Shown: positions 11,558-57,542, counted from the first letter of the stretch. The stretch is 64,000 nt of DNA from Vitiosangium sp. GDMCC 1.1324 (GCF_003044305.1 NZ_PZOX01000005.1:515493-579492); one strand, 5' to 3'. The notes: generated by a model not told the origin, from the sequence alone. A program made the numbers and translations.

Positions 11558-12232
11558 TCAGAAAGACTCGAGGAACGGTAGGTCCAGCCGTCCAGGCCCA
11601 GTCTCGTTCTCTCTCGAATCCGGCGTTTCGAATCCTGTAACACCTGCTCCAGGTCCGGGCCTCGGGCAGTTCACCGGCTGATAGGCCCCTCCATTCCCTG
11701 TGTACGCGTAGGTGTCCATGGTCCCGTGCCCATCGACGAAGCCAAAGAACCCGCTGCCGGACTTGGCGATCGCCAGGTACGTGCCGGGAGGCACGAACAG
11801 CGCGTCGTACCAGCCGAACCCATGCTTCCTGCAGACATGAGTGAAGGGAACCTGCGCCGGGAAGGAGGCTTGCACCGAGGCCACGTCCTCTTGCGTGATG
11901 CTGGCGAGCTGGTCGGGAGTGCACTTGCCACGATTCTGGCAGAGCGCCGAGTCCGGTCCGATGCGGATGACGATGAAGCCCGTGCCCACGCAGGAGATGC
12001 CGAGCCGTAAGCGGCCCACATCAGGCATGGAGATGACGCGCGTGTCGGGGTTGGTGCGGTGGTAGTCCGAGGCCAGGTACACCGGCGTGCCCGGCACGGT
12101 CGTTTCTCCCTGGCAGGGCCCGGGATAATCCCTGCTGCTGGCTGCCTGGGACGCGCTGCCTCCCAAGAGGGCGAGGACGCTCAGCCCTACCCGCGTGAGC
12201 TCCCTCCGCTTGGATGTCATGTTGGCTTTCAT
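11558..12232 (-). CDS. Secreted hypothetical protein (signal peptide, Cys-rich)
   Basis: MKANMTSKRRELTRVGLSVLALLGGSASQA is a signal peptide. Its N-terminal 75 aa, promoter and stop-region motif are duplicated at 16289-16828. Confidence 0.7.
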   Translation of the reverse strand: MKANMTSKRRELTRVGLSVLALLGGSASQAASSRDYPGPCQGETTVPGTPVYLASDYHRTNPDTRVISMPDVGRLRLGISCVGTGFIVIRIGPDSALCQNRGKCTPDQLASITQEDVASVQASFPAQVPFTHVCRKHGFGWYDALFVPPGTYLAIAKSGSGFFGFVDGHGTMDTYAYTGNGGAYQPVNCPRPGPGAGVTGFETPDSRENETGPGRLDLPFLESF

Positions 12233-12381
12233 TGGATCGACGCTCTCCTTTCGGCAGCGGGTGCTGCACTACCGTGGGTACGAGAGCGAGCAAGAATTGG
12301 ATGAAGGCCTTCTCACGGGCCGCGGAAGCAGCACGAAGAGCAGAGGAGGAAGCTCGGCTGCCATGTTGCGTGGAGGTCCGC
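12005..12381. repeat. Direct repeat copy 1 (about 377 bp; 5' end plus upstream region of secreted-protein gene)
   Basis: About 95% identical to 16451-16828 by manual alignment, with one 1-bp indel. Confidence 0.8.
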
Positions 12382-12410
12382 GTCCCACGGCACCGCCCCT
12401 TGTTCGGCGT

Positions 12411-12494
12411 ATCGGCGGCTGTCGCCGACAAATCGGCGGCTGTCGCCGACAAATCGGCGGCTGTCGCCGACAAATCGGCGACTGTCGCCGACAA
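12411..12494. repeat. Tandem array of four 21-bp units (ATCGGCGGCTGTCGCCGACAA)
   Basis: Four head-to-tail copies, the 4th with one G>A change. The array contains alternating half-sites TCGGCG / CGCCGA forming overlapping palindromes at about 10.5-bp spacing, in a divergent promoter region. Confidence 0.85.
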
Positions 12495-12753
12495 ATTGTG
12501 GCGGGTCACCGGATTGGGGCTGGCGCCGGTTCATTGGACAGCTCGAGCAAGCTGCTGGCTGTGCCCGTCGAGGCGGCGAGCTCGAATCCCGCCGAGCTGA
12601 GAGAGCCCGGCTTCGGCTCTGCCCCCAGTCAGCCCGGCGCGAGTCCACTGGCGCGCCCCGTGCAATGACTGGATTTCGCGCCGGCTGGCGCAGGGAGCAG
12701 TCCCCCCGGCAGTCACGCCCTCCACGTCGGCACCCTCTACACGGGAGAAATCA

Positions 12754-14415
12754 ATGTCGCGAGAACACAATCGTCCAGGAGTCCCGAGGTCTTCGAGGTT
12801 CGTGCGCTGGTCGTCGGCGCTGTGTGTCTTCCTTGGCGCATGCACCACTCAGGACGGTCTACCTGAAGCGAATCTCCAATCCTCGACCCAGGAGATCATC
12901 AACGGCACTCCGTACGAGGCGGAGAACAGCGGCTTCGTCATGATGGTCAGCAATGGCTCGCTCTGCAGCGCCACGTTGCTCAACAACGAGTGGGTGCTCA
13001 CCGCGAAGCATTGCAACGTCGTCGCGGGAGCGACGGCGTATATGGGCTCGCAGTCCCGCGGGGTGATTCAGGTGGTCAACCACCCGAACCTGGATGTCAC
13101 CCTGGCGCACCTGCAGAGCCCGATGAGCATGCGGAACTCGAGCAACGCATACGCCAGGGCGCTGCGCACCACGCCGCTCGCGGTGGGGGAAGCGGTGCAG
13201 TGCTTTGGCTACGGCCTCAACACCTTCGACGCGGGTGCTGGCACGCTGCGCACGGCGGCCCTGAGCCTCAGCAGCCTGACGGCGACCGAATACAACTTCG
13301 ACCGGAACGGCTCGGGCCAGGTGCAGTGGAAGGGGGACTCTGGCGGCCCCTGCATCGACAGCGAGGGCAGGGTCGTCAGCGTCGCGTCCTACTGCTGGTA
13401 CGGGAACAACGAGGTGTATTCCTGTGCCGTGGTGCGCTCCGATGTGTTCGCGAGCTGGGCGAATGACTACACCAACCTCCGGACCGGTGCCAGCTATCGC
13501 ATCCAGGTGAAGGCGGATGGCCGCTTCCTCCACGAGGATGGATGGGGTGACAAGTTGCTCAGCACGCGCTACCAGCCCAACGACGACTACACCCAGTTCA
13601 TCCTGGAGCCCAATGGCGAAGGCTGGCGGATCAAGGTGAAGGCGGATGGCCGCTTCCTCCACGAGGATGGATGGGGTGACAGGTTGGTCAGCACGCGCGT
13701 CCAACCCAACGATGATTTCACCGTGTTCATGTTCACTCCGTCCGGAGATGGGAGCTGGCGCATCTCTGTCAAGGCAGACGGCCTCTTCCTCCACGAGGAT
13801 GGATGGGGTGACAAGTTGCTCAGCACGCGCTACCAGCCCAACGATGACTTCACCCGGTTCTATCTGACGCGGGTCGACATCCCGGTGAACTTCGAGTTCG
13901 GGGATGCGCGCCGTACCACCTCCACCGGCGACTGGGCCGCCTTCAGCTACAAGTCCGAGTGCGCCAGCGGTGAGATGGTGGCCGGCCTGTCCCTCAACCC
14001 CACCTCGCGCAATACCCGCGTCGCGCTGTGCCGCGCCAGCGGTGACTCCCGCTTCCCGCACAACGGCTGCTACACCCGGCACTTCTCCTCCGGCGACAGC
14101 CGCGGAACCCTCGCCACCGGCGACTGGGATAACGGGTACTACAAGGGGGAGTGCGGCACGAACGAGTTCGTCGCCGGTGTAGCCCAGGACGCCGCCCATG
14201 GAATCACCGCCATGCTCTGCTGCCCCGGCACGGTGGCCCACAACTCCTGCGTCGCCCGCGTCTTCGACGGCCAGAATGGAGGCTGGAACCCCGCCTCGGG
14301 CGACTGGGACCCCGGGAATTGGAAGGGCGAGTGCGGTCCCGGCAGCTACACCGCGGGCCTCTCCCGCAACACCTCCACCGGCACGCCCCACGCGCTGCTC
14401 TGCTGCAATCCTTAA
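12754..14415 (+). CDS. Secreted trypsin-like (S1) serine protease lipoprotein with beta-trefoil (ricin-B-like) triple repeat and a novel C-terminal 3x Cys-rich repeat domain
   Basis: Lipobox FLGAC; catalytic His in TAKHC and Ser in GDSGGP. Three approx. 45-aa repeats (ADGRFLHEDGWGDKLLSTRYQPNDD...W) follow, then three repeats of GDW..G.ECG....AG.......LCC. Confidence 0.85.
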   Translation: MSREHNRPGVPRSSRFVRWSSALCVFLGACTTQDGLPEANLQSSTQEIINGTPYEAENSGFVMMVSNGSLCSATLLNNEWVLTAKHCNVVAGATAYMGSQSRGVIQVVNHPNLDVTLAHLQSPMSMRNSSNAYARALRTTPLAVGEAVQCFGYGLNTFDAGAGTLRTAALSLSSLTATEYNFDRNGSGQVQWKGDSGGPCIDSEGRVVSVASYCWYGNNEVYSCAVVRSDVFASWANDYTNLRTGASYRIQVKADGRFLHEDGWGDKLLSTRYQPNDDYTQFILEPNGEGWRIKVKADGRFLHEDGWGDRLVSTRVQPNDDFTVFMFTPSGDGSWRISVKADGLFLHEDGWGDKLLSTRYQPNDDFTRFYLTRVDIPVNFEFGDARRTTSTGDWAAFSYKSECASGEMVAGLSLNPTSRNTRVALCRASGDSRFPHNGCYTRHFSSGDSRGTLATGDWDNGYYKGECGTNEFVAGVAQDAAHGITAMLCCPGTVAHNSCVARVFDGQNGGWNPASGDWDPGNWKGECGPGSYTAGLSRNTSTGTPHALLCCNP

Positions 14416-14493
14416 CAACACATCCGTATCGAGGAACCCAATCCCCATTCCGGCTCAGATGAGCCCGGCACATCGAAACTCACGAGGAGACCC

Positions 14494-16317
14494 ATGAACG
14501 TTTCCCCCTTCTGTTCGATTCGAGCATCCCTCGCGGCGGCCTTGCTGCTCCTGTCCGCCTGTCAGCCCCCCGAGTCCCCCGAGCCCGGCGTCGAGTCCGC
14601 GCTGCCTGGGACGGGCGGGGCCAGCGGCACGAGCGAGGAGGTGCGCACCGTGGTCCAGGCCGTCGACATCCCCTCCAACTACGACTCCGGCATCTGGGCC
14701 ATTCCCAGCGAGGGAAACCTCTACGCGGACCGGCTGTATGGCGTGAGCGCCCAGTCCTGCGCCGATCTGTGCAGCGCGAGGCAGGACTGCACCGGCTTCT
14801 ACGCCTTCACCGATTGGGATACCTGCCAGCTCTATGGCGCGCAGGCCGAGACCGCCGGCCGTATCGGGCCCTGGAACAACATCAAGATGTACTGGAAGCG
14901 CAAGAGCGTGAATGCGCAGCAGTACGCCTCGGGCATCTGGGCCGTCCCCAACGAGGGGTACATCTCGGACACGCTGTATGGGTACACGCCCGCCCAGTGC
15001 TCGCAGCTCTGCGAGTCCAAGGCCGATTGCACCGGTTTCTACGCGTTCACCGACAGGCTGCAGTGCCGCCTCCACGGCCCGGCCTCCGAGAAGTCCGCCA
15101 CCAACGGCCCGTGGACGAACCTCATGGAGTACCAGCGCAAGCGCGCGACCCGGGCATTCCTCGTGGATTTGAAGGTCCTCACCACCTCCAGCGGCGGGAA
15201 CGAGTTCTGGAGCGAGGCGCATGCCCGCAACGTGCTCGCCGAGGCGACGAAGCTGATGCAGGGCGAGGTGGCCTTCAGCCTGGCGACCTACACGCGCGTC
15301 GTCGATGACGCGCGTTACAACGGCAACTCGCAGTACGACATCCTCCTGGCCTATGGGAACACGACGCAGAGCGGCCGGATGACCGTCTACGTCTCCAGCC
15401 CAAATACCTACGACTCCGCCGGTGTGGCCTGGCAGGGCGCGCAGTTCGCGCCGTACTTCGTGATGCGCTCGCGGCAGAACAATGGCAGCGCGAGCGACCT
15501 CGACGAGACGGCCCGCATCTTCCTGCATGAGTTCGGGCACAACCTGAACTTCTCGCACGGGGCCGCCACCGAGCAGGACCCCTTCCACACGGACTGGTAC
15601 TGGAACGTCGCCCAGGCCCGGCAGGTCGTCACCCGGCTCGCGGACTGGTCCCGGCTCTACCTCATGGGGACCAGCCCGAACATCAAGACCGACAGCCTCG
15701 ACTGTGGTTGGGGCTGGGGTGTCCCCACCCAAGGAGCCCTGACGGAGCCGCAGTTCTACGCGCCCACGGCGCTGGCGTGTGCCGCGCGATGCGCCCAGAC
15801 CTCGGAATGCGCGAGCTCCCACTGGCGTGATGATGGGGCATGCGTCCTCTATGGCGCAGACAGCATCGGCCATACCGGCATGGGCTGGTCCAACGTGGAG
15901 GTGTGCTGGAAGAAGTCCGATGGGACGGACCTGGCGCTCGCGCGCCCCACGCTCCAGTCCAGCACCGATTGGGGCGGCGCCGCGTCGCGCGCCGTGGACG
16001 GCAACATGGATGGCAACTTCAACGCGGGCTCCGTCACCCACACCGCCACCGAGTCCCAGCCCTGGTGGCAGGTCGACCTCCAGAGCTCCCGGTTCATCAA
16101 CAAGGTCGTGGTCCGCAACCGCACCGACTGCTGCTCCGACCGGCTGAACAACTTCAAGGTCCTGGTCTCGGAGGATGGGAGCACCTGGCAGGCGTACAGC
16201 TTCCCGAACGTGGCGCCGCAGCAGACCGAGTTCCCGGTGGGGAGGACCGGCCGCTTCGTGAAGGTGCAGCTCGACGGCTCGGGCGTCCTCAGCCTGGCCG
16301 AAGTGAAGGTGCTCTAG
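14494..16317 (+). CDS. Secreted zinc metalloprotease lipoprotein with PAN/apple-like domains and C-terminal F5/8 type C (discoidin) domain
   Basis: Lipobox LLSAC, a repeated Cys pattern C..C..DCTGFYAF.....C (PAN-like, about 3 copies), HEFGHNLNFSH (HExxH), and a C-terminal discoidin-like segment WWQVDL...RFVKV. Confidence 0.85.
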   Translation: MNVSPFCSIRASLAAALLLLSACQPPESPEPGVESALPGTGGASGTSEEVRTVVQAVDIPSNYDSGIWAIPSEGNLYADRLYGVSAQSCADLCSARQDCTGFYAFTDWDTCQLYGAQAETAGRIGPWNNIKMYWKRKSVNAQQYASGIWAVPNEGYISDTLYGYTPAQCSQLCESKADCTGFYAFTDRLQCRLHGPASEKSATNGPWTNLMEYQRKRATRAFLVDLKVLTTSSGGNEFWSEAHARNVLAEATKLMQGEVAFSLATYTRVVDDARYNGNSQYDILLAYGNTTQSGRMTVYVSSPNTYDSAGVAWQGAQFAPYFVMRSRQNNGSASDLDETARIFLHEFGHNLNFSHGAATEQDPFHTDWYWNVAQARQVVTRLADWSRLYLMGTSPNIKTDSLDCGWGWGVPTQGALTEPQFYAPTALACAARCAQTSECASSHWRDDGACVLYGADSIGHTGMGWSNVEVCWKKSDGTDLALARPTLQSSTDWGGAASRAVDGNMDGNFNAGSVTHTATESQPWWQVDLQSSRFINKVVVRNRTDCCSDRLNNFKVLVSEDGSTWQAYSFPNVAPQQTEFPVGRTGRFVKVQLDGSGVLSLAEVKVL

Positions 16318-16678
16318 GCGGGCCCCGCGGCTCCAGAGCCCGGGCGGCGCGGTGGGGGCCGCCCGGGAGCTCGAAGCGCGCGTCCACCTTCTCCACCTCG
16401 TGGTTGTCTCCGGGTTGGACGGATTGCGACGGTAGGTCCAACCGTCCAGGCCGTAAGCGGCCGACATCAGGCATGGAGATGACGCGCGTGTCGGGGTTGG
16501 TGCGGTGGTAGTCCGAGGCCAGGTACACCGGCGTGCCCGGCACGGTCGTTTCTCCCTGGCAGGGCCCGGGATAATCCCTGCTGCTGGCTGCCTGGGACGC
16601 GCTGCCTCCCAAGAGGGCGAGGACGCTCAGCGCTACCCGCGTGAGCTCCCTCCGCCTGGATGTCATGTTGGCTTTCAT
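16289..16678 (-). pseudogene. Truncated paralog of the 11558-12232 secreted-protein gene (internal-deletion derivative)
   Basis: The first 75 aa are almost identical to gene 11558-12232 (one K>R change). It then joins to a 23-bp motif matching the stop region of the full-length gene (CGGTAGGTCCA(A/G)CCGTCCAGGCC) and reads through antisense to the 3' end of the metalloprotease gene. Confidence 0.5.
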
Positions 16679-16828
16679 TGGATCGACGCTCTCCTTTTGG
16701 CAGCGGGTGCTGCACTACCGCGGGTACGAGAGCGAGCAGGAATTGGATGAAGGGCTTCTCAAGGACCGTGGAAGCAGCACGGAGAGCAGAGGAGGAAGCT
16801 CGACTTGCCATGTTGCGTGGAGGTCCGC
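16451..16828. repeat. Direct repeat copy 2 (about 378 bp)
   Basis: Matches 12005-12381. It lacks the 21-bp tandem array found beyond copy 1. Confidence 0.8.
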
Positions 16829-18948: not shown

Positions 18949-20703
18949 CTACGCGGCCGGGTCCTTCTTCGGCGCCGTGGGCACCTGCAGGCCCGCCGAG
19001 CGCGCCAGGCCCATCACGCCCTCCACCGCCGCCGCGATGTAGCCGAACGGATTGGCTCCATCCACGGCCGTCACGTGCACCTCGCCCATCTTCTGCTGGA
19101 ACGCCGCCGCCACCTGCGGCAACTGCTGCGCCAGCACCAGTTGGATCGACTCCGGCGACAGCGTGTTGTCGATCTCCCGCAGCGCCCTCGCCCTCGCCAG
19201 CTCCGGGTCCTGCGTGATGCGGGCCTTGCGCGCATCCATCTCCGCCATCGCCAGTTCCGCCTCGGCAATGGCACACCGCGCCTCCGCCACCTTCGCCTGC
19301 GCCCTCGCCCGCTCCGCCTCCTGCTGCAACACCGCCATCATCGCCGCGTGCCGCGCCGTCTGCGCCTGCTGCTCCTGGTGCAGCTTCTCCAGATCCGCCT
19401 CCGCCTTCACCACCGCCATCTGCCGCTCATGCGCCAGGCGCGCCGCCTCCGCCTCCTGCTCCAGCTTCAGCCTCTCCAGCTCCGCCTGCGCCTTCGCCAC
19501 CGACAGCGCCCGCTCATTCGTCAGCTTCGCCGTCTGCGCATGCTGCTCCAGCTTCAGCCTCTCCAGCTCCGCCTGGGACCTCGACGCCGCCAGCCCCCGC
19601 TCCTGCGCCAGCTTCGCCTCCGCCATCCGCCGCTCGGCCTCGAGCTGCGCCAGCTTCTGCGCCTCCTCCGCCTTCGTCTTCTGCTCCCTCACCTCCAGCT
19701 CGGCGTTCAGCTTCGCCAGCGCCGTCTCGCGCTCCAGCGTCACCTGCGCCTGCCGCGTGCTCCGCTCCTTCGCGACCCGCGCCTCCTCCACGCGCGACTC
19801 GATCGCCAGCGCCTCCAGCTTCGCCTGCTCCTCCGCCTCCTGCCGCTTGTGCCGGACCTCCTCCTCCGTCGCCAGCCGCGTCAGCGAAATCTGCCGCTCC
19901 GCCTCCGCCTCCTCCTTCCGGATGAAGCGCTCCTTGGCCAGCTCCGCCTCGCGCGCCACCCGCTCCTGCTCCTCCCGGAAGCGCGCCTGCATGTTCGCGA
20001 ACACCGTCTCCGACAGCACCCGCACGTCCTGGATCTCAATCGTGTCCAGGACCACGCCCCACCCCGTGGCCGCCCGGTCCTCCGGCCTCCCCTTCCCCGA
20101 CACCACCGGCGCGATCTCCCGCATCAGCTCCGTGGCGATTCCCTCCTTGCGCTTGGAGAGGCACTCCTCCACCGACAGGTTCGCCACCAGCCGCCGCACC
20201 GCTCCCACGAACATCTCCCGCAGCAGCTCCGCCAGCTTCTGCTGCGCCCGCTCCGGGAAGGAGAAGTTCAGCATCCGGAAGGCCACCAGCGGATCGACAA
20301 TCCGGTACACCGCCAGGCCCGTCACCTGCACGCCCACCTTCTCGCTCGTCACCTGGTCCGCGGTGAACTGCAGCCGCTGCACGCTCGTGGGGACGATCGC
20401 CACCGCGTCCCCCGGCAGCTTGAAGCACGAGGCCCCCTGCCCGCTCACCTCGCGCACCCGGCCCCGGCGCATGTGGATGAGGAACTCGCTCGGCCTCGCG
20501 GTGACCAGGCCCCACTTCTTCATCTTCTCCGGGTCCTCCTCCGGCTTGCCCGCCCTCCACCCGCCCTGGTACCGCCGCAGGTCCTCCCCGCCCCCCTGCG
20601 GCTCGCCCCCGCCACTGCGCACCAGCTCCGACCGCCCTCCCACCGACAGCTCCATGGCCCCCACGGCGTTCAGCTTCATTGCCCGCTTCTCATTCGTGCT
20701 CAT
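18949..20703 (-). CDS. Flotillin-like SPFH/Band-7 domain protein
   Basis: An SPFH domain followed by a long EA-rich coiled coil. The start is taken at MSTNEKRAMKLNAV, since the upstream extension of the listed ORF is not protein-like. Confidence 0.85.
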   Translation of the reverse strand: MSTNEKRAMKLNAVGAMELSVGGRSELVRSGGGEPQGGGEDLRRYQGGWRAGKPEEDPEKMKKWGLVTARPSEFLIHMRRGRVREVSGQGASCFKLPGDAVAIVPTSVQRLQFTADQVTSEKVGVQVTGLAVYRIVDPLVAFRMLNFSFPERAQQKLAELLREMFVGAVRRLVANLSVEECLSKRKEGIATELMREIAPVVSGKGRPEDRAATGWGVVLDTIEIQDVRVLSETVFANMQARFREEQERVAREAELAKERFIRKEEAEAERQISLTRLATEEEVRHKRQEAEEQAKLEALAIESRVEEARVAKERSTRQAQVTLERETALAKLNAELEVREQKTKAEEAQKLAQLEAERRMAEAKLAQERGLAASRSQAELERLKLEQHAQTAKLTNERALSVAKAQAELERLKLEQEAEAARLAHERQMAVVKAEADLEKLHQEQQAQTARHAAMMAVLQQEAERARAQAKVAEARCAIAEAELAMAEMDARKARITQDPELARARALREIDNTLSPESIQLVLAQQLPQVAAAFQQKMGEVHVTAVDGANPFGYIAAAVEGVMGLARSAGLQVPTAPKKDPAA

Positions 20704-20938
20704 TGGCGCACCCTCCGGAAGTCCCGGACTCCCGGAATTGCAGCCTGCTGGCCAACGCCCCGCTGCCCTGAAATCGCGCACTTGGCCACTCGGGGTGTTC
20801 CAGGCTGGCGCACCTGCTCCAGAGTGGAGCGCTCCGCTCCGGTACAACCCGTGATAGAGGACTGAATCGGTCTGATTCGCGGTTGATACAGCCTGGGGCG
20901 CCCCGCCCTTATGTCAGCTTGACCGGGAGGGTCCCGAT

Positions 20939-52867: not shown

Positions 52868-53391
52868 TCAGTTCACCTGCACCGAGCCACCCTTGATGCG
52901 GTGGGTGCCCGAGGCGTGGCTTTCGATCTGGGTCCCCTTGATGACAACCCGGCCATTGCGCCGCAGGGTGATGCTGGCCTGGCCGCATCGCAAAACAATC
53001 TCATCCTGGCCCTCGATGACGACTCGTTTGCCATCGACATGAGCCTCCACGGGCTGCTCCTCGATGGGCGCGGACTGCGCAAGGACTGCGTCCAGCAACG
53101 GCGTGGAACTGGGTGTCTGCTCCAGCCCCACCACCAATGGCATCAAGGGATCTCCATTTTCGAAGAGCAATACCGCCCGCTGACGGGTAGCAATGGCATC
53201 CCGCAGCGCCTCGGGCTCCAACGGAACCGTGCGCCGGGCAGCCAACGGACGGCCGGTGCGATTTCCCTCGAAGTCCACCAGCAGCATTCCCGCCTCATCC
53301 GTCCCAACGACCCACCCCAACTTGCTTCCCCAGATGGGCTCGCGCGTTTCATCGTCCGACCCTGTTCCCAACGAATGCATGGGTACCTTCA
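52868..53391 (-). CDS. Hypothetical protein with C-terminal beta-strand repeat (DUF6484-like, tentative); co-transcribed with the TIGR02270-like gene
   Basis: A GGAGAC RBS then MKVPMHS. The C-terminus VDGKRVVIEGQDEIVLRCGQASITLRRNGRVVIKGTQIESHASGTHRIKGGSVQVN resembles beta-helix/spike-like repeats. Confidence 0.5.
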
Positions 53392-53536
53392 TCCGGTGTC
53401 TCCTCTGATTGTGCTGGGTCCCAGCCCTGCCCCCCCATGGGTAGGAATAGTCTATCAGGTGGAACACCTTCTCCAGGAGTCCCTACCAGTCGCTATCAGA
53501 GCAACGAGAGTGCTGGATGGCAAACACCTACAACGT

Positions 53537-53565
53537 TTGACATATGCATCTGAATTTATCTAACG
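53537..53565 (+). promoter_or_regulatory. AT-rich promoter candidate (TTGACA -35-like hexamer, TATCTA/TCTAAC -10-like) for the DUF2169 operon
   Basis: The only strongly AT-rich stretch in the 53.4-53.6 kb divergent region. Hexamer spacing is suboptimal. Confidence 0.25.
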
Positions 53566-53595
53566 TCACTCCTCCGAAGTAGGGGGGATTAAACA

Positions 53596-54606
53596 ATGTG
53601 GGGGCTGAAGAATCGCACGGCCTACGCCGCAGAACGGAACTGGACGCGCGACAAGGACGGAGTCCATTGGTGGCTCGTCGCAGTCAAGGCAACGTTCGAC
53701 ATCGCTCCCGGGGGACGGCTCATGCTGGCGGACGAGCAACCGCCCCCGGTGCTGGCACCAGAGTATTTCGGCGAACCAGGCCGGTCGAGCTTGCGCTACG
53801 ACTCCGATCTCCTCGCGGCGAAGCCGGGCACGGACGTGCTGGTCGCCGCGCACGCGCACGCGCCGCATGGAAAACCTGCTCCCACGGTGCCGGTCTCGCT
53901 CCGTATCGAACGGCTCCACAAGGAGATACTCATACACGGGGAACGCCTCTACGACCGGGGGTTGCTCGGCGTGACGGTGACCCGGCCGCAGCCGTTCACC
54001 ACGCGCCCGATTCGATACGAATTCGCATTCGGTGGCAGCGACCTGTCCAACCCCGATCCCCAGAAGCAGCGTATCGATGAGCGGAACCCGATCGGACGCG
54101 GCTTCGCGCGGCGAACAACTGACGTCGTTGGGGAACTGGCCCACGCGATAGAGTATCCACGTGGCGCTCCAGCGGAGATGGGACCGGCGGGGTTCGGCCC
54201 GATCGATTCCTCCTGGATGCCGCGGCGCAAGCTCGCGGGGACATATGACGCACGGTGGGAACAATCGAAGAAGCCGCTGCTGCCTGATGACTTCGATCCC
54301 GCCTTCGCGCTGAGTGCCCCCACGGACCAGCGGACCGAGAAGCCCATCGTCGGCGAAGAGCGTGTCGAGCTCTTGAACATGACCCCCGACGGTGTCCTGC
54401 GCTTCGAGCTCCCGCGCATTTCGCTCGGCTTCACCACGCGCATCGGCACGCGGCGCGAGCAGCACGGCTCGCGACTGGTAACGGTGCTCGTGGAGCCCGA
54501 GGAGAGGCACCTCTCCCTGGTGTGGCAGAGCGTGCTGCGCGTTCCCGTCCCTGACGCGGACTATCTCGACGAAACGGAAATCGTCGAACAAAGGAGTACG
54601 ATGTGA
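53596..54606 (+). CDS. DUF2169-domain protein (T6SS effector adaptor family)
   Basis: MWGLKNRTAYAAE...WLVAVKATFDI is the characteristic DUF2169 N-terminus. A GGGGGG RBS precedes it. Confidence 0.8.
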   Translation: MWGLKNRTAYAAERNWTRDKDGVHWWLVAVKATFDIAPGGRLMLADEQPPPVLAPEYFGEPGRSSLRYDSDLLAAKPGTDVLVAAHAHAPHGKPAPTVPVSLRIERLHKEILIHGERLYDRGLLGVTVTRPQPFTTRPIRYEFAFGGSDLSNPDPQKQRIDERNPIGRGFARRTTDVVGELAHAIEYPRGAPAEMGPAGFGPIDSSWMPRRKLAGTYDARWEQSKKPLLPDDFDPAFALSAPTDQRTEKPIVGEERVELLNMTPDGVLRFELPRISLGFTTRIGTRREQHGSRLVTVLVEPEERHLSLVWQSVLRVPVPDADYLDETEIVEQRSTM

Positions 54607-55652
54607 ACGCCCAGGTCGAGGTGGTGGCCGTCGGCGCGCGAACCCCTGTCGGCCTCACCGCCGAGAGCAGTGCGGCGGCCGTGCGCGCTGGCATCACGCG
54701 GTACGCCGAGTATCCCTTCATCGACCCTCGCGGCGAACCGGTCGTGGTCGCCGCCGACCGGCTGCTCGAACCCAAGTTCGAGGGACGAGACCGTCTGGCG
54801 CCCATGGCCGAGAGTGTTCTCGAGGAGATTGAAGCCAAGATCGATCAGAAGATCCTCTACGGGGGCAGGCTCAGCGTGTTGCTCGCGCTTCCAGAAACCC
54901 GCCCGGGGTTCTCCGAGGACGACGCGGCCTGGGTGGCGAACGCCCTGGCTGCTCGGTTCCGAGCAAAAACGTCCAACGCGCACGTCGAGATCGCCGGGCG
55001 AGGGCACGCCGGAGCGATTCGGGCCGTCGAGCAGGTGGTGAGGGAGTGCTCCGAAAGCAGGGACAATCTGTTCCTGGTCGTTGGAGTCGACAGCTACCAC
55101 CACGCAGATACGTTCGCATGGTTGGAGCGCAGCCGCCGGTTCGCACAACCGGGGATTCGCAACGGGTTCACCCCGGGCGAGGGAGCTGGATGCCTCGCAC
55201 TGATGAGCGCGGGACTGCGCCGTCGCTTGCGCCTCCCCCAACTGGCCATCATGCGAGGGGCGAGCACCGCACAGGAGCGACTGCTGCGCGACAGTGACAC
55301 GGGCTCGTTCGGCGTCGGAATGACCCAGGCGCTCCAAGGCGCCATCGCTGGCCTCGACCGTCCCCGCGAGGGCGTCGACGCCGTGTACACGGATATCAAT
55401 GGTGAACGTTACCGCAGTGAGGAGTGGGGCTTCGTCGCGTTGCGTGCACCGTCGGTCTGGAAGACGCCCGGGTACAAGGCCCCGAGCGACTGCTGGGGTG
55501 ACGTGGGCGCTGCATTTGGGACGCTCGGGAGCATCCTGGCGGTCCAGGCGTTCGCGCGGAGCTACGCGCGAGGCCCGAGGGCTCTGGTGATGGCAGGCTC
55601 AGATGGCGGGCTGAGAGGGGCTATGCTCCTGCAAGCTCCCCAGGTGTCATGA
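54603..55652 (+). CDS. Ketosynthase (thiolase-fold)-like protein lacking the catalytic Cys (putative pseudoenzyme)
   Basis: VEVVAVGARTPVG / NGFTPGEGAGCLAL / GDVGAAFGTLGSILAVQAF parallel KAS I/II conserved blocks. The position equivalent to the active-site Cys reads IAGRGHAG. It overlaps the DUF2169 stop. Confidence 0.55.
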   Translation: MNAQVEVVAVGARTPVGLTAESSAAAVRAGITRYAEYPFIDPRGEPVVVAADRLLEPKFEGRDRLAPMAESVLEEIEAKIDQKILYGGRLSVLLALPETRPGFSEDDAAWVANALAARFRAKTSNAHVEIAGRGHAGAIRAVEQVVRECSESRDNLFLVVGVDSYHHADTFAWLERSRRFAQPGIRNGFTPGEGAGCLALMSAGLRRRLRLPQLAIMRGASTAQERLLRDSDTGSFGVGMTQALQGAIAGLDRPREGVDAVYTDINGERYRSEEWGFVALRAPSVWKTPGYKAPSDCWGDVGAAFGTLGSILAVQAFARSYARGPRALVMAGSDGGLRGAMLLQAPQVS

Positions 55653-55665
55653 GGAGGCAATCCGA

Positions 55666-56802
55666 ATGTCGAAAGTCTCTGTGAATACTCCGAAGACCCC
55701 GGTGACCGAAGGGACCAACGGGGTCGCCGCGGCGACGTTGCCCAACGTGTGCAAGATGCCGGGGCCGCCAGCTCCGTTTGTCCCGACCCCTCTGCCCAAC
55801 ATCGGCAAGAGCGGAACAGACCCGAAGAACTACTCCAAGAGCGTCACAATCGAAGGGAAGAAGGTGGCGATCAGGGGCGCCACCTTCGGTTCCATGGGTG
55901 ACGTGGCCAGCAAGGGGACCGGAGGCGGAATCGTCTCCTCCAACGTGGAAGGACCCACGAGCTTCGTGGGACCCGGGTCCATGGACGTGAAGATCGAGGG
56001 GAAGAACGTCCAACTGCTCGGCGACCCGATGCTCAACAACTGCGGGCCGAGCGGCAGCCCGGCGAACGCGGCGACAATGATGGGCGTGCTCCAAACGACC
56101 GGGTTCGTCACGGTCGTCAATGGGGAGGACAAATGCCCTTTGTGCAGGCAGCGACACGGTGAAGACGCTACTCTGAAAGAGGCTCCGTCGACGAAGGTCA
56201 ATGCCGGGCGACTAGCGCAGAGAGTCGCCAGGAAGGTGCGCTCTGGCGAATCTCCCCCTCTCGCGACAATGCTGGGGGTAGTCCAGTGCAAGTGTGGAAA
56301 AAAGAAAACCTATGCAGACCACTCGGGGGATACACTCCAATGTGTTTGCGACAGTATCGCGGAGCTAAAATGGGTGGGCCCCACGACTGCAACCAGTCCT
56401 GACATCAAAAAGAAAAAGGTCAAGAGTTTCCTTGAAGGTCGTTTCAGCCAACGAGGGGCAGACTTAGACAAGACGTGGCAGAAACTCACTCACCGCGCCC
56501 AAAAGAGCAAGCGCGGTGAGACCTCGTCTGCGGCCTACCCTCCGGGCTCTTGTGCTGGCCCAAGGGCACTCGTGCTCGCTCTAGAAGATAAAGCCTATCC
56601 GGCTGGCCTCACCGAACGATGGTTCCACAGCGGAAAGCAGCCGGTTGAGGCGAAGATCAGGTTCCGCGATGCGGAGAGCGGTGAAGAGGTCGAAGCTTAC
56701 TTCGACCATGGAAAGACCGTCCCGCCGTGTTTGACCTGCAATGTCATCATTCCTTCAATGCTCTGCCCCGAAGACAAGGAAATCGAATGTCAGCACCCTT
56801 AA
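55666..56802 (+). CDS. DUF4150 (PAAR-like) domain polymorphic toxin with Cys-rich C-terminal domain of unknown type
   Basis: N-terminus LPNVCKMPGPPAPFVPTPLPNIG ... IEGKKVAIRG ... IEGKNVQLLGDPMLNNCG is a typical DUF4150. The C-terminal approx. 220 aa carry CPLC, QCKCG, QCVC, SC, PPCLTC and C..C motifs, with GC content visibly lower than the flanks. Confidence 0.8.
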   Translation: MSKVSVNTPKTPVTEGTNGVAAATLPNVCKMPGPPAPFVPTPLPNIGKSGTDPKNYSKSVTIEGKKVAIRGATFGSMGDVASKGTGGGIVSSNVEGPTSFVGPGSMDVKIEGKNVQLLGDPMLNNCGPSGSPANAATMMGVLQTTGFVTVVNGEDKCPLCRQRHGEDATLKEAPSTKVNAGRLAQRVARKVRSGESPPLATMLGVVQCKCGKKKTYADHSGDTLQCVCDSIAELKWVGPTTATSPDIKKKKVKSFLEGRFSQRGADLDKTWQKLTHRAQKSKRGETSSAAYPPGSCAGPRALVLALEDKAYPAGLTERWFHSGKQPVEAKIRFRDAESGEEVEAYFDHGKTVPPCLTCNVIIPSMLCPEDKEIECQHP

Positions 56803-57542
56803 TGGAACTCGAGATGGAAGAACTGCTCCTGAGAATCGAGCCAGAACTCGCGGACCAGTGGCAGGGGGCGACTCCCGACATGATCGAGAAGATCGAGCGG
56901 CTTGCTGGTCACCCTTTGCCTCCATTCTATCGCTGGTTCCTAAGTCGCATGGGTAAGAGCATGGGGGCTCTGGCCTATCCGACTGTAGACTTCTCAGCGC
57001 AACGCGTGCTCGCCTGCTACGCCGAGAAGTTGGTCATGCCCGACCCCCGATTCTTGCTCATCGGATATGAATCCAATGAGATGATGCCTCTGCATGTCTT
57101 TTACGATTTCGATGCGCCGGCTCGAGAGGACGCCCTGGTGACGGAACGTTACGCCAAGGGAGGTGAACTTTACGACAGCTTCGAGACTTTGCGCGAAATG
57201 TTAGCATGGGGTGCGCTCTTGAAGTTCAGGGTCAACAAGATGCCGCAACAGTGTGAGGGCGTTCTCTCCAGCGATGATCCAGATCTCCTCTCACACCTCG
57301 ATCCGCTGATGAGTAGTCTTGGGTTCACCAAGCCGATTCCCACCGGGCCTCGCTGTGGCCTTTACGAGCGGCACGATTCGGTCCTGATATGCTCGCGTAC
57401 GCCGAGGGAAGAACTTATCGGCAATCAGGCCTTCACGCTCGGTGGACGCGACTCGGGAGTTCTCAGAAAGATTCTGGGCAGGATCACAACCGAGTCCTCG
57501 CTAGAGGTCGAAGTCGACGAGTGGACGCCAGCGCTCCGATGA
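56787..57542 (+). CDS. Immunity protein candidate (SUKH / SMI1-KNR4-like)
   Basis: It overlaps the toxin 3' end by 16 bp. DMIEKIERLAGHPLPPFYRWFLSRMG resembles the SMI1/KNR4 N-terminal signature, and GC content is lower. Confidence 0.65.
   Translation: MSAPLMELEMEELLLRIEPELADQWQGATPDMIEKIERLAGHPLPPFYRWFLSRMGKSMGALAYPTVDFSAQRVLACYAEKLVMPDPRFLLIGYESNEMMPLHVFYDFDAPAREDALVTERYAKGGELYDSFETLREMLAWGALLKFRVNKMPQQCEGVLSSDDPDLLSHLDPLMSSLGFTKPIPTGPRCGLYERHDSVLICSRTPREELIGNQAFTLGGRDSGVLRKILGRITTESSLEVEVDEWTPALR

Follow-up and report, generated by a model that had tools for sequence, protein, structure and literature searches.

The closest described systems to the protein considered here are the carbohydrate-binding modules (CBMs) and lectin domains that are attached to secreted hydrolases, such as the ricin-B/CBM13 trefoils and the PA14 and F5/8 type C domains, which are non-catalytic, comprise approximately 130–180 residues, and are usually located at the C terminus. 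They are shuffled among unrelated catalytic domains, including GH5, and have three-fold repeats and stand-alone secreted forms. Endoglucanase E1, a GH5 relative of solved structure, carries a cellulose-binding module C-terminal to its catalytic domain. The β-prism proteins (jacalin-like lectins, VMO-I (PDB 1vmo), and Vip3/Cry domains) are all-β structures built from three pseudo-symmetric four-stranded units and, in VMO-I, there are also Cys-containing repeats and a CC sequence at the C terminus. The C-terminal Cys/His-rich domain of PCSK9 and the resistin modules are likewise among the closest known systems. Here we describe a 553-residue protein encoded in a 64,000-nucleotide stretch of DNA from Vitiosangium sp. 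GDMCC 1.1324 (NZ_PZOX01000005.1:515493-579492), which is referred to as the window and is numbered from its first letter. From its sequence, the protein is a predicted lipoprotein-anchored S1A serine protease with two non-catalytic modules behind the protease, a β-trefoil domain and a C-terminal module of about 180 residues (residues 374–553) that contains three Cys-rich repeats. The C-terminal module, which is the main subject of this study, resembles the CBM and lectin appendages in all of the features listed above, and the β-prism proteins in its all-β, three-unit organization, but differs from the former in having no sequence or fold match with them and in a putative disulfide arrangement, a single bond in each repeat and two accessory bonds, that is particular to its own family. 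It is a real, autonomous domain and represents a widespread, undescribed domain family with a predicted fold that has no significant neighbor in the PDB.

The presence of three Cys-rich repeats at the C terminus, noted in a preliminary description of this DNA, is borne out far beyond chance. In BLASTP comparisons, repeats 1 and 2 are 40% identical with an E value of 1e-11 and repeats 2 and 3 are also 40% identical with an E value of 1e-13; the same repeats are detected in the DNA as repeat family D5. Their length had been given as approximately 50 residues and is corrected here to periods of 64 and 60 residues. The motifs described as strictly conserved are all present, but the conservation is not strict, because repeat 1 has SECA and ALCR in place of GECG and LCC and repeat 3 has SGDW. 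The position before the Cys, described as Glu or Lys, is always Glu, and a conserved Lys is found two residues earlier. Across 163 domain instances, the signature of each repeat is F..GD.R.....GDW(D).G..K(G)EC.....V.G(V/L)S........(I/L)LC(C).

The co-occurrence of Cys residues was scored over 164 aligned sequences, the query and the 163 domain instances, and is given here in domain numbering. The EC...LC pairs within the repeats (C30/C53, C94/C116, and C154/C177) are found in almost every sequence. The Cys in the first strand of repeat 2 (C66) and the second Cys of its LCC sequence (C117) are both present in 99 sequences and both absent in 63, with 2 exceptions; for the equivalent residues of repeat 3, C126 and C178, the corresponding numbers are 151, 10, and 3. 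From this pattern we infer five disulfide pairs, an intra-repeat disulfide in each repeat and an accessory disulfide in each of repeats 2 and 3 (Table 1). The restriction of the accessory pairs to repeats 2 and 3 accounts for the fact that repeat 1 ends in LC and not in LCC. Each repeat would consist of four β-strands stapled by the invariant intra-repeat disulfide (K-x-E-C ... L-C), and in repeats 2 and 3 an accessory disulfide would link the initial strand with the last Cys of the LCC sequence in the same repeat.

The C-terminal repeats could not be assigned to a known domain when they were first described, and this still holds. A Pfam search of the region at E ≤ 10 returned no families, and hence no confident match to a known CBM or to a ricin-type family, a result that excludes only those CBMs represented in Pfam. 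Nothing was found in NCBIfam for residues 374–553, a profile of the family compared with all PDB sequences gave only noise (best E value, 0.16), no Pfam model covered the C-terminal region in any of 84 family members scanned, and searches of the literature yielded no relevant account of a C-terminal domain of this kind. The claim that the repeat is novel is therefore correct in the sense that it is unannotated, but this gene is not alone in encoding it, since relatives are found in 705 clusters at 50% identity.

The structure prediction that had been proposed for the repeat region produced a confident all-β model. With an alignment of 12 sequences, AlphaFold2 gave a predicted local distance difference test score (pLDDT) of 93.9 and a predicted template modeling (TM) score of 0.91 for the C-terminal domain, which comprises 12 strands arranged as three sets of four with the same strand order in all three repeats. 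A single-sequence prediction for a stand-alone member of the family (P0054), in which no alignment was used, had a pLDDT of 40 and was uninformative. Comparison of the domain model with the PDB by Foldseek gave nothing significant (best E value, 0.18; TM score below 0.31). In BFVD, borderline matches were obtained with E values of approximately 1e-3, probabilities of 0.99–1.0, and query TM scores of 0.45–0.5; the entries, M4QR88, A0A3G4ZV77, and A9YW57, are uncharacterized proteins from giant viruses, including prasinoviruses.

A homolog search restricted to the repeat region, as the preliminary description had advised, defined the phyletic spread of the domain and its partners. An exhaustive profile search covering 1.84 billion representatives yielded the 705 clusters with a threshold of E ≤ 1e-3, of which 613 remained at E ≤ 1e-10. 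A word-index search returned 12 relatives and, when it was carried out with a diverse profile, 30 short metagenomic proteins that left the taxonomic picture unchanged; no relatives were found in the viral contigs searched. The match spans the whole three-repeat unit in all 155 of the proteins examined. In 127 of these 155 the domain ends within 12 residues of the C terminus, in 20 it stands alone behind a signal peptide, and in 8 there are two tandem copies; some members carry it internally, and others carry it at the N terminus or in tandem (P0080, P0044, and P0111). A rough hydrophobicity test detected a segment resembling a signal peptide near the N terminus in 82 of 130 sequences that start with Met.

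The partners identified with Pfam comprise two groups: (i) enzymes and families of unknown function, namely Phi_1 (7), neprosin (5), CHAP (5), subtilase S8 (4), PI-PLC-X (2), M57, C25, C1, and trypsin; and (ii) binding or adhesion domains, namely PAN (5), PA14 (2), B_lectin, sortilin/BNR, and FG-GAP. In one protein from a metagenome-assembled genome (MAG; L003), the domain is joined to a jacalin-like lectin. In Streptomyces and Kitasatospora, the domain is C-terminal to enzymes of the GH5 cellulase family, and the Kitasatospora GH5-domain gene adjoins genes for sugar ABC transporter permeases and a β-galactosidase. Other members are from Archangium, Cystobacter, Myxococcus, Corallococcus, Duganella, and a Candidatus Dojkabacteria genome (L007) in addition to these Streptomycetaceae, and the remainder are mostly from soil-type metagenomes. 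In soil metagenome contigs (L009–L011), stand-alone members of 208 residues are encoded by two adjacent paralogous genes beside a 2OG-Fe(II) oxygenase gene.

The DNA that encodes only this domain shares approximately 80% identity with the 3′ ends of M57 "protease B" genes of Myxococcus and Corallococcus (L004–L006) and 84% with the 3′ end of the MAG gene for the lipoprotein with a jacalin domain (L003, 5344-6528). The S1 and M57 catalytic parts, in contrast, are unrelated. These identities indicate a shuffled module and an apparently recent shuffling of the C-terminal domain among secreted proteins of myxobacteria.

An autonomous, disulfide-rich, three-fold domain that occurs both alone, as a secreted protein, and shuffled onto many secreted hydrolases and adhesion domains of unrelated types has the pattern of a binding or targeting module. 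We consider it probable, by analogy with such modules, that the C-terminal domain is a multivalent binding module through which the attached enzyme is kept on a polymeric substrate or on the surface of a target cell. Glycans would be the most likely ligands, a more tentative proposal that we place slightly below an even balance. It is possible, though we would lean a little against the proposal in its full form, that the family is a new one of lectins or CBMs with a fold absent from the PDB, three-fold pseudo-symmetric and disulfide-stapled with 12 β-strands, that has up to three equivalent glycan sites around the GD.R, GDW, and K.EC motifs and targets proteases, cell wall hydrolases, phospholipases, and glycosidases to surfaces in soil bacteria of several phyla. 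The domain architectures back the carbohydrate or cell-surface targeting role that was suggested previously for the module as a putative function, and both its role in predation and its carbohydrate ligand are inferred. In the Vitiosangium protein, the lipid anchor would tether the protease on the surface of the cell or of a vesicle, and the trefoil and C-terminal module together would engage polymers of the prey or matrix and bring the protease to them.

Several points weigh against a glycan-binding module. The searches with Pfam, the PDB profile, Foldseek, and the VOMI profile revealed no characterized lectin or CBM that is significantly similar in sequence or structure. The invariant residues (D-W, K, E-C, G, and S) could all be structural, and the most frequent partner, Phi_1, has to our knowledge no known biochemical function. 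The location at the extreme C terminus would be equally compatible with a pro-domain or sorting signal, and any ligand is putative.

Four other explanations of the C-terminal domain were considered, and all are disfavored by the domain architectures or by direct tests. One is that it belongs to a known β-prism family, VMO-I/VOMI or jacalin-like, from which it has diverged strongly, and hence does not constitute a new family. The top structural matches, although weak, are mostly β-prism proteins (jacalin-like lectins, VMO-I, and Vip3/Cry domains). Domain III of Vip3A is a β-prism (PMC7414852), so that several of the weak neighbors, among them Vip3 if the match is with this domain, are β-prism proteins. 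A similar repeat, W..C..G..LxC, and a CC terminus were confirmed in the VMO-I sequence. However, a profile-profile comparison of the C-terminal domain with a 121-sequence VOMI alignment gave a probability of 0.1%, and membership of the VOMI family was rejected on this basis. Homology to the VOMI profile together with the same fold over three repeats was not detected, and no structural match was obtained that covers all three Greek-key sheets of the jacalin-like β-prism I lectins. We regard such a distant β-prism relationship as unlikely. As a separate candidate, a β-trefoil fold for the C-terminal domain was rejected, since no trefoil is present among its structural matches and the middle domain of the same protein is readily recognized as one. 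The C-terminal extensions of several secreted bacterial proteases are removed on maturation, and the domain could be a pro-domain of this type that acts as an intramolecular chaperone or as an auto-inhibitor of the protease. Its C-terminal location in most members and the many proteases among its partners (S1, S8, M57, C25, C1, and neprosin) would agree with this, but such a function appears improbable in view of the approximately 20 secreted stand-alone members, those in which the domain is N-terminal or in tandem, and the many partners that are not proteases (GH5, PI-PLC, CHAP, PAN, Phi_1, and jacalin); the distribution over unrelated catalytic folds argues against a chaperone that is specific for one of them.

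The same strong preference for the extreme C terminus, combined with the variety of unrelated secreted cargos, is what would be expected of a secretion or sorting domain that mediates export or surface attachment, like the C-terminal domain of the type IX secretion system or the MYXO-CTERM and PEP-CTERM signals. Models for known C-terminal sorting signals are included in NCBIfam, and the only match there was a weak one to the MarP protease. A sorting domain is also difficult to reconcile with hosts that differ in cell envelope (Myxococcota, Actinomycetota, Betaproteobacteria, and a genome of the candidate phyla radiation (CPR)), with a length of 180 residues and five putative disulfides but no terminal hydrophobic segment, with the predicted lipid anchor already present at the N terminus of the 553-residue protein, and with the internal or N-terminal locations in some members. 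No conserved sorting enzyme is encoded nearby in the loci examined, and we view this explanation as decidedly improbable. A domain that is itself the effector, an antimicrobial or membrane-active toxin to which the protease and other enzymes are accessory, is in our judgment highly improbable. The structural scores, that of the Vip3 match included, are below significance, amphipathic or hydrophobic segments are absent, the GH5 fusion in a sugar utilization cluster does not fit such a role, and no immunity-like gene is evident beside the stand-alone genes.

The third-position GC content of the open reading frame is 0.86, which fits a real gene in a window with a GC content of 68%. The N terminus was assigned as that of a bacterial lipoprotein (signal peptide plus lipobox, [LVI][ASTVI][GAS]C), with Cys30 as the predicted site of lipidation; in the closest homolog, the ortholog P0014, the lipobox is CLGAC. 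An intact S1 catalytic domain, as originally described, is confirmed by a match to the Pfam Trypsin model PF00089 (E value, 6.6e-16; 59.2 bits with a cut-off of 20.6) and by the catalytic triad, which occurs in the order His86 (TAKHC), Asp114 (DVTLA), and Ser196 (GDSGGP). The domain has six Cys residues in the positions usual for S1A proteases, and its closest sequences in the PDB, snake venom serine proteinases, Der p 3, and granzyme M, are ordinary chymotrypsin-fold enzymes. The weak MarP match mentioned above was the sole match in an NCBIfam scan of the whole protein.

Table 1. Window coordinates of the protease gene, its parts, and the adjacent gene
Feature	Coordinates	Strand	Remarks
Open reading frame, 553 residues	12754-14415	+	Four parts: lipobox, S1 protease, β-trefoil lectin, and 180-residue C-terminal module
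Shine-Dalgarno-like GGGAG	12740-12744	+	9 nucleotides 5′ of the ATG; read from sequence
Signal peptide ending in lipobox F-L-G-A-C	12754-12843	+	Predicted lipidated Cys30; from translation
S1 (chymotrypsin-fold) serine protease domain, residues 48-235	12895-13458	+	Pfam Trypsin
β-Trefoil lectin-type domain, residues 244-373	13483-13872	+	Three repeats of 43-44 residues; Pfam, DNA repeats, PDB match
C-terminal repeat 1, residues 374-438	13873-14067	+	FEFGDARR..TGDW..YKSEC..VAGLS..ALC; putative intra-repeat disulfide C403-C426
C-terminal repeat 2, residues 439-498	14068-14247	+	C..HFSSGDSRG..TGDWD..YKGECG..FVAGVA..MLCC; putative disulfides C467-C489 (intra-repeat) and C439-C490 (accessory)
C-terminal repeat 3, residues 499-553	14248-14412	+	C..VFDG....SGDWD..WKGECG..YTAGLS..LLCC; putative disulfides C527-C550 (intra-repeat) and C499-C551 (accessory)
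Adjacent gene, 607-residue secreted protein	14494-16317	+	79 nucleotides downstream

The three repeats of about 45 residues attributed previously to a β-trefoil are also substantiated. The middle domain matches the ricin-type trefoil model RicinB_lectin_2 of Pfam with 29.2 bits, above the cut-off of 25.6, and also DUF3930. Its top sequence match in the PDB is Mitsuba-1 (5xg5; E value, 8.9e-9), a symmetric trefoil that was designed from MytiLec, a lectin of mussels. At the DNA level the repeats form family D3, with three units of 108 nucleotides (13492-13860) that are 86–89% identical, and the proteins that they encode, read from the translation, are mutually 70–75% identical, giving a near-symmetric trefoil. 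MytiLec binds sugar through the motifs HPxGG and HxDxH (PMC4913266), and mytilectins have been described only in Metazoa in a 2023 survey (PMC10744619). In the alignment with Mitsuba-1, HPKGG corresponds to HEDGW and HSDKH to P-NDD, and the mytilectin motifs are thus not present in intact form. The middle domain is similar to the mytilectin and Mitsuba trefoils in having three repeats of about 45 residues and in retaining the His of HPxGG, but differs in the loss of HxDxH and in internal repeats that are far more similar to each other. Because HPxGG is only partly kept and HxDxH is lost, we have termed the domain lectin-type. A mytilectin-like trefoil in a myxobacterium, with very similar repeats and Mitsuba-1 as its best match, may merit a separate investigation.

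The nearest relatives of the gene are in Archangium lansingense (L001; 94% nucleotide identity) and a Cystobacter MAG (L002; 92%). The homologous region (12632-14427) ends approximately 120 nucleotides upstream of the gene in the former and 50 nucleotides upstream in the latter, and within about 15 nucleotides past the stop codon. The flanking regions beyond the gene are unrelated, so that there is no synteny and the gene is in a variable region; comparison with these two loci provided no functional hint. The adjacent 607-residue protein has PAN/apple domains in three copies and a region with a weak match to reprolysin-like (M12) metalloproteases, and it ends in an F5/8 type C domain (NedA-like, galactose-binding). 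It is a second lectin-decorated protease, and its gene may be co-transcribed with the S1 gene.

The two genes are bracketed by a 379-bp direct repeat of 96.6% identity (12004-12381 and 16450-16828), which includes the 5′ end and upstream region of a lipoprotein gene on the minus strand (11558-12232). The second copy has the appearance of an internally deleted pseudogene copy, because 16429-16452 matches the 3′ end of that gene at 11575-11598. This arrangement suggests that recombination inserted or duplicated a segment of 4.4 kb. The intergenic region upstream of the S1 gene (12390-12515) contains 4–5 copies of a 21-nucleotide tandem repeat, ATCGGCGGCTGTCGCCGACAA, each with the palindrome TCGGCG..CGCCGA, and similar 21-nucleotide units are present in inverted orientation upstream of the Archangium lansingense ortholog (L001, 4593-4648); the repeat could be a regulatory or recombination element. 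Elsewhere in the window, tandem repeats of approximately 87 nucleotides with 61–81% identity (19273-19837) are located inside an SPFH/Band 7 gene on the minus strand (18949-20847). An island of lower GC content (approximately 0.58–0.66) at 52868-57542 encodes DUF6484 and DUF2169 proteins, one ketoacyl-synthase-like protein, and a Tox-PAAR-like protein, of which the C-terminal region has no assignment, followed by a small open reading frame with no Pfam match. From its gene content, the island resembles an effector/immunity cluster of a type VI secretion system.

The original observation of an unassigned triple repeat at the end of this protease is thus confirmed, and its interpretation is supported. 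Proteases with lectin-type appendages are familiar, as is the role of a targeting appendage on secreted enzymes, so that no new kind of biological system is involved, and what is new lies in the domain family and not in the role of the architecture. If the interpretation is true, the C-terminal module defines a new domain family, probably a new family and fold of CBMs or lectins, and provides an annotation for the last 180 residues, so far unexplained, in hundreds of enzymes that bacteria secrete, among them predatory proteases of myxobacteria, GH5 enzymes of Streptomyces, and subtilases of CPR bacteria. Compact, trivalent binding modules that are stabilized by disulfides would be useful as glycan probes or targeting tags. 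For the biology of the myxobacteria, it would indicate how lipid-anchored hydrolases may reach the glycans of prey or matrix.
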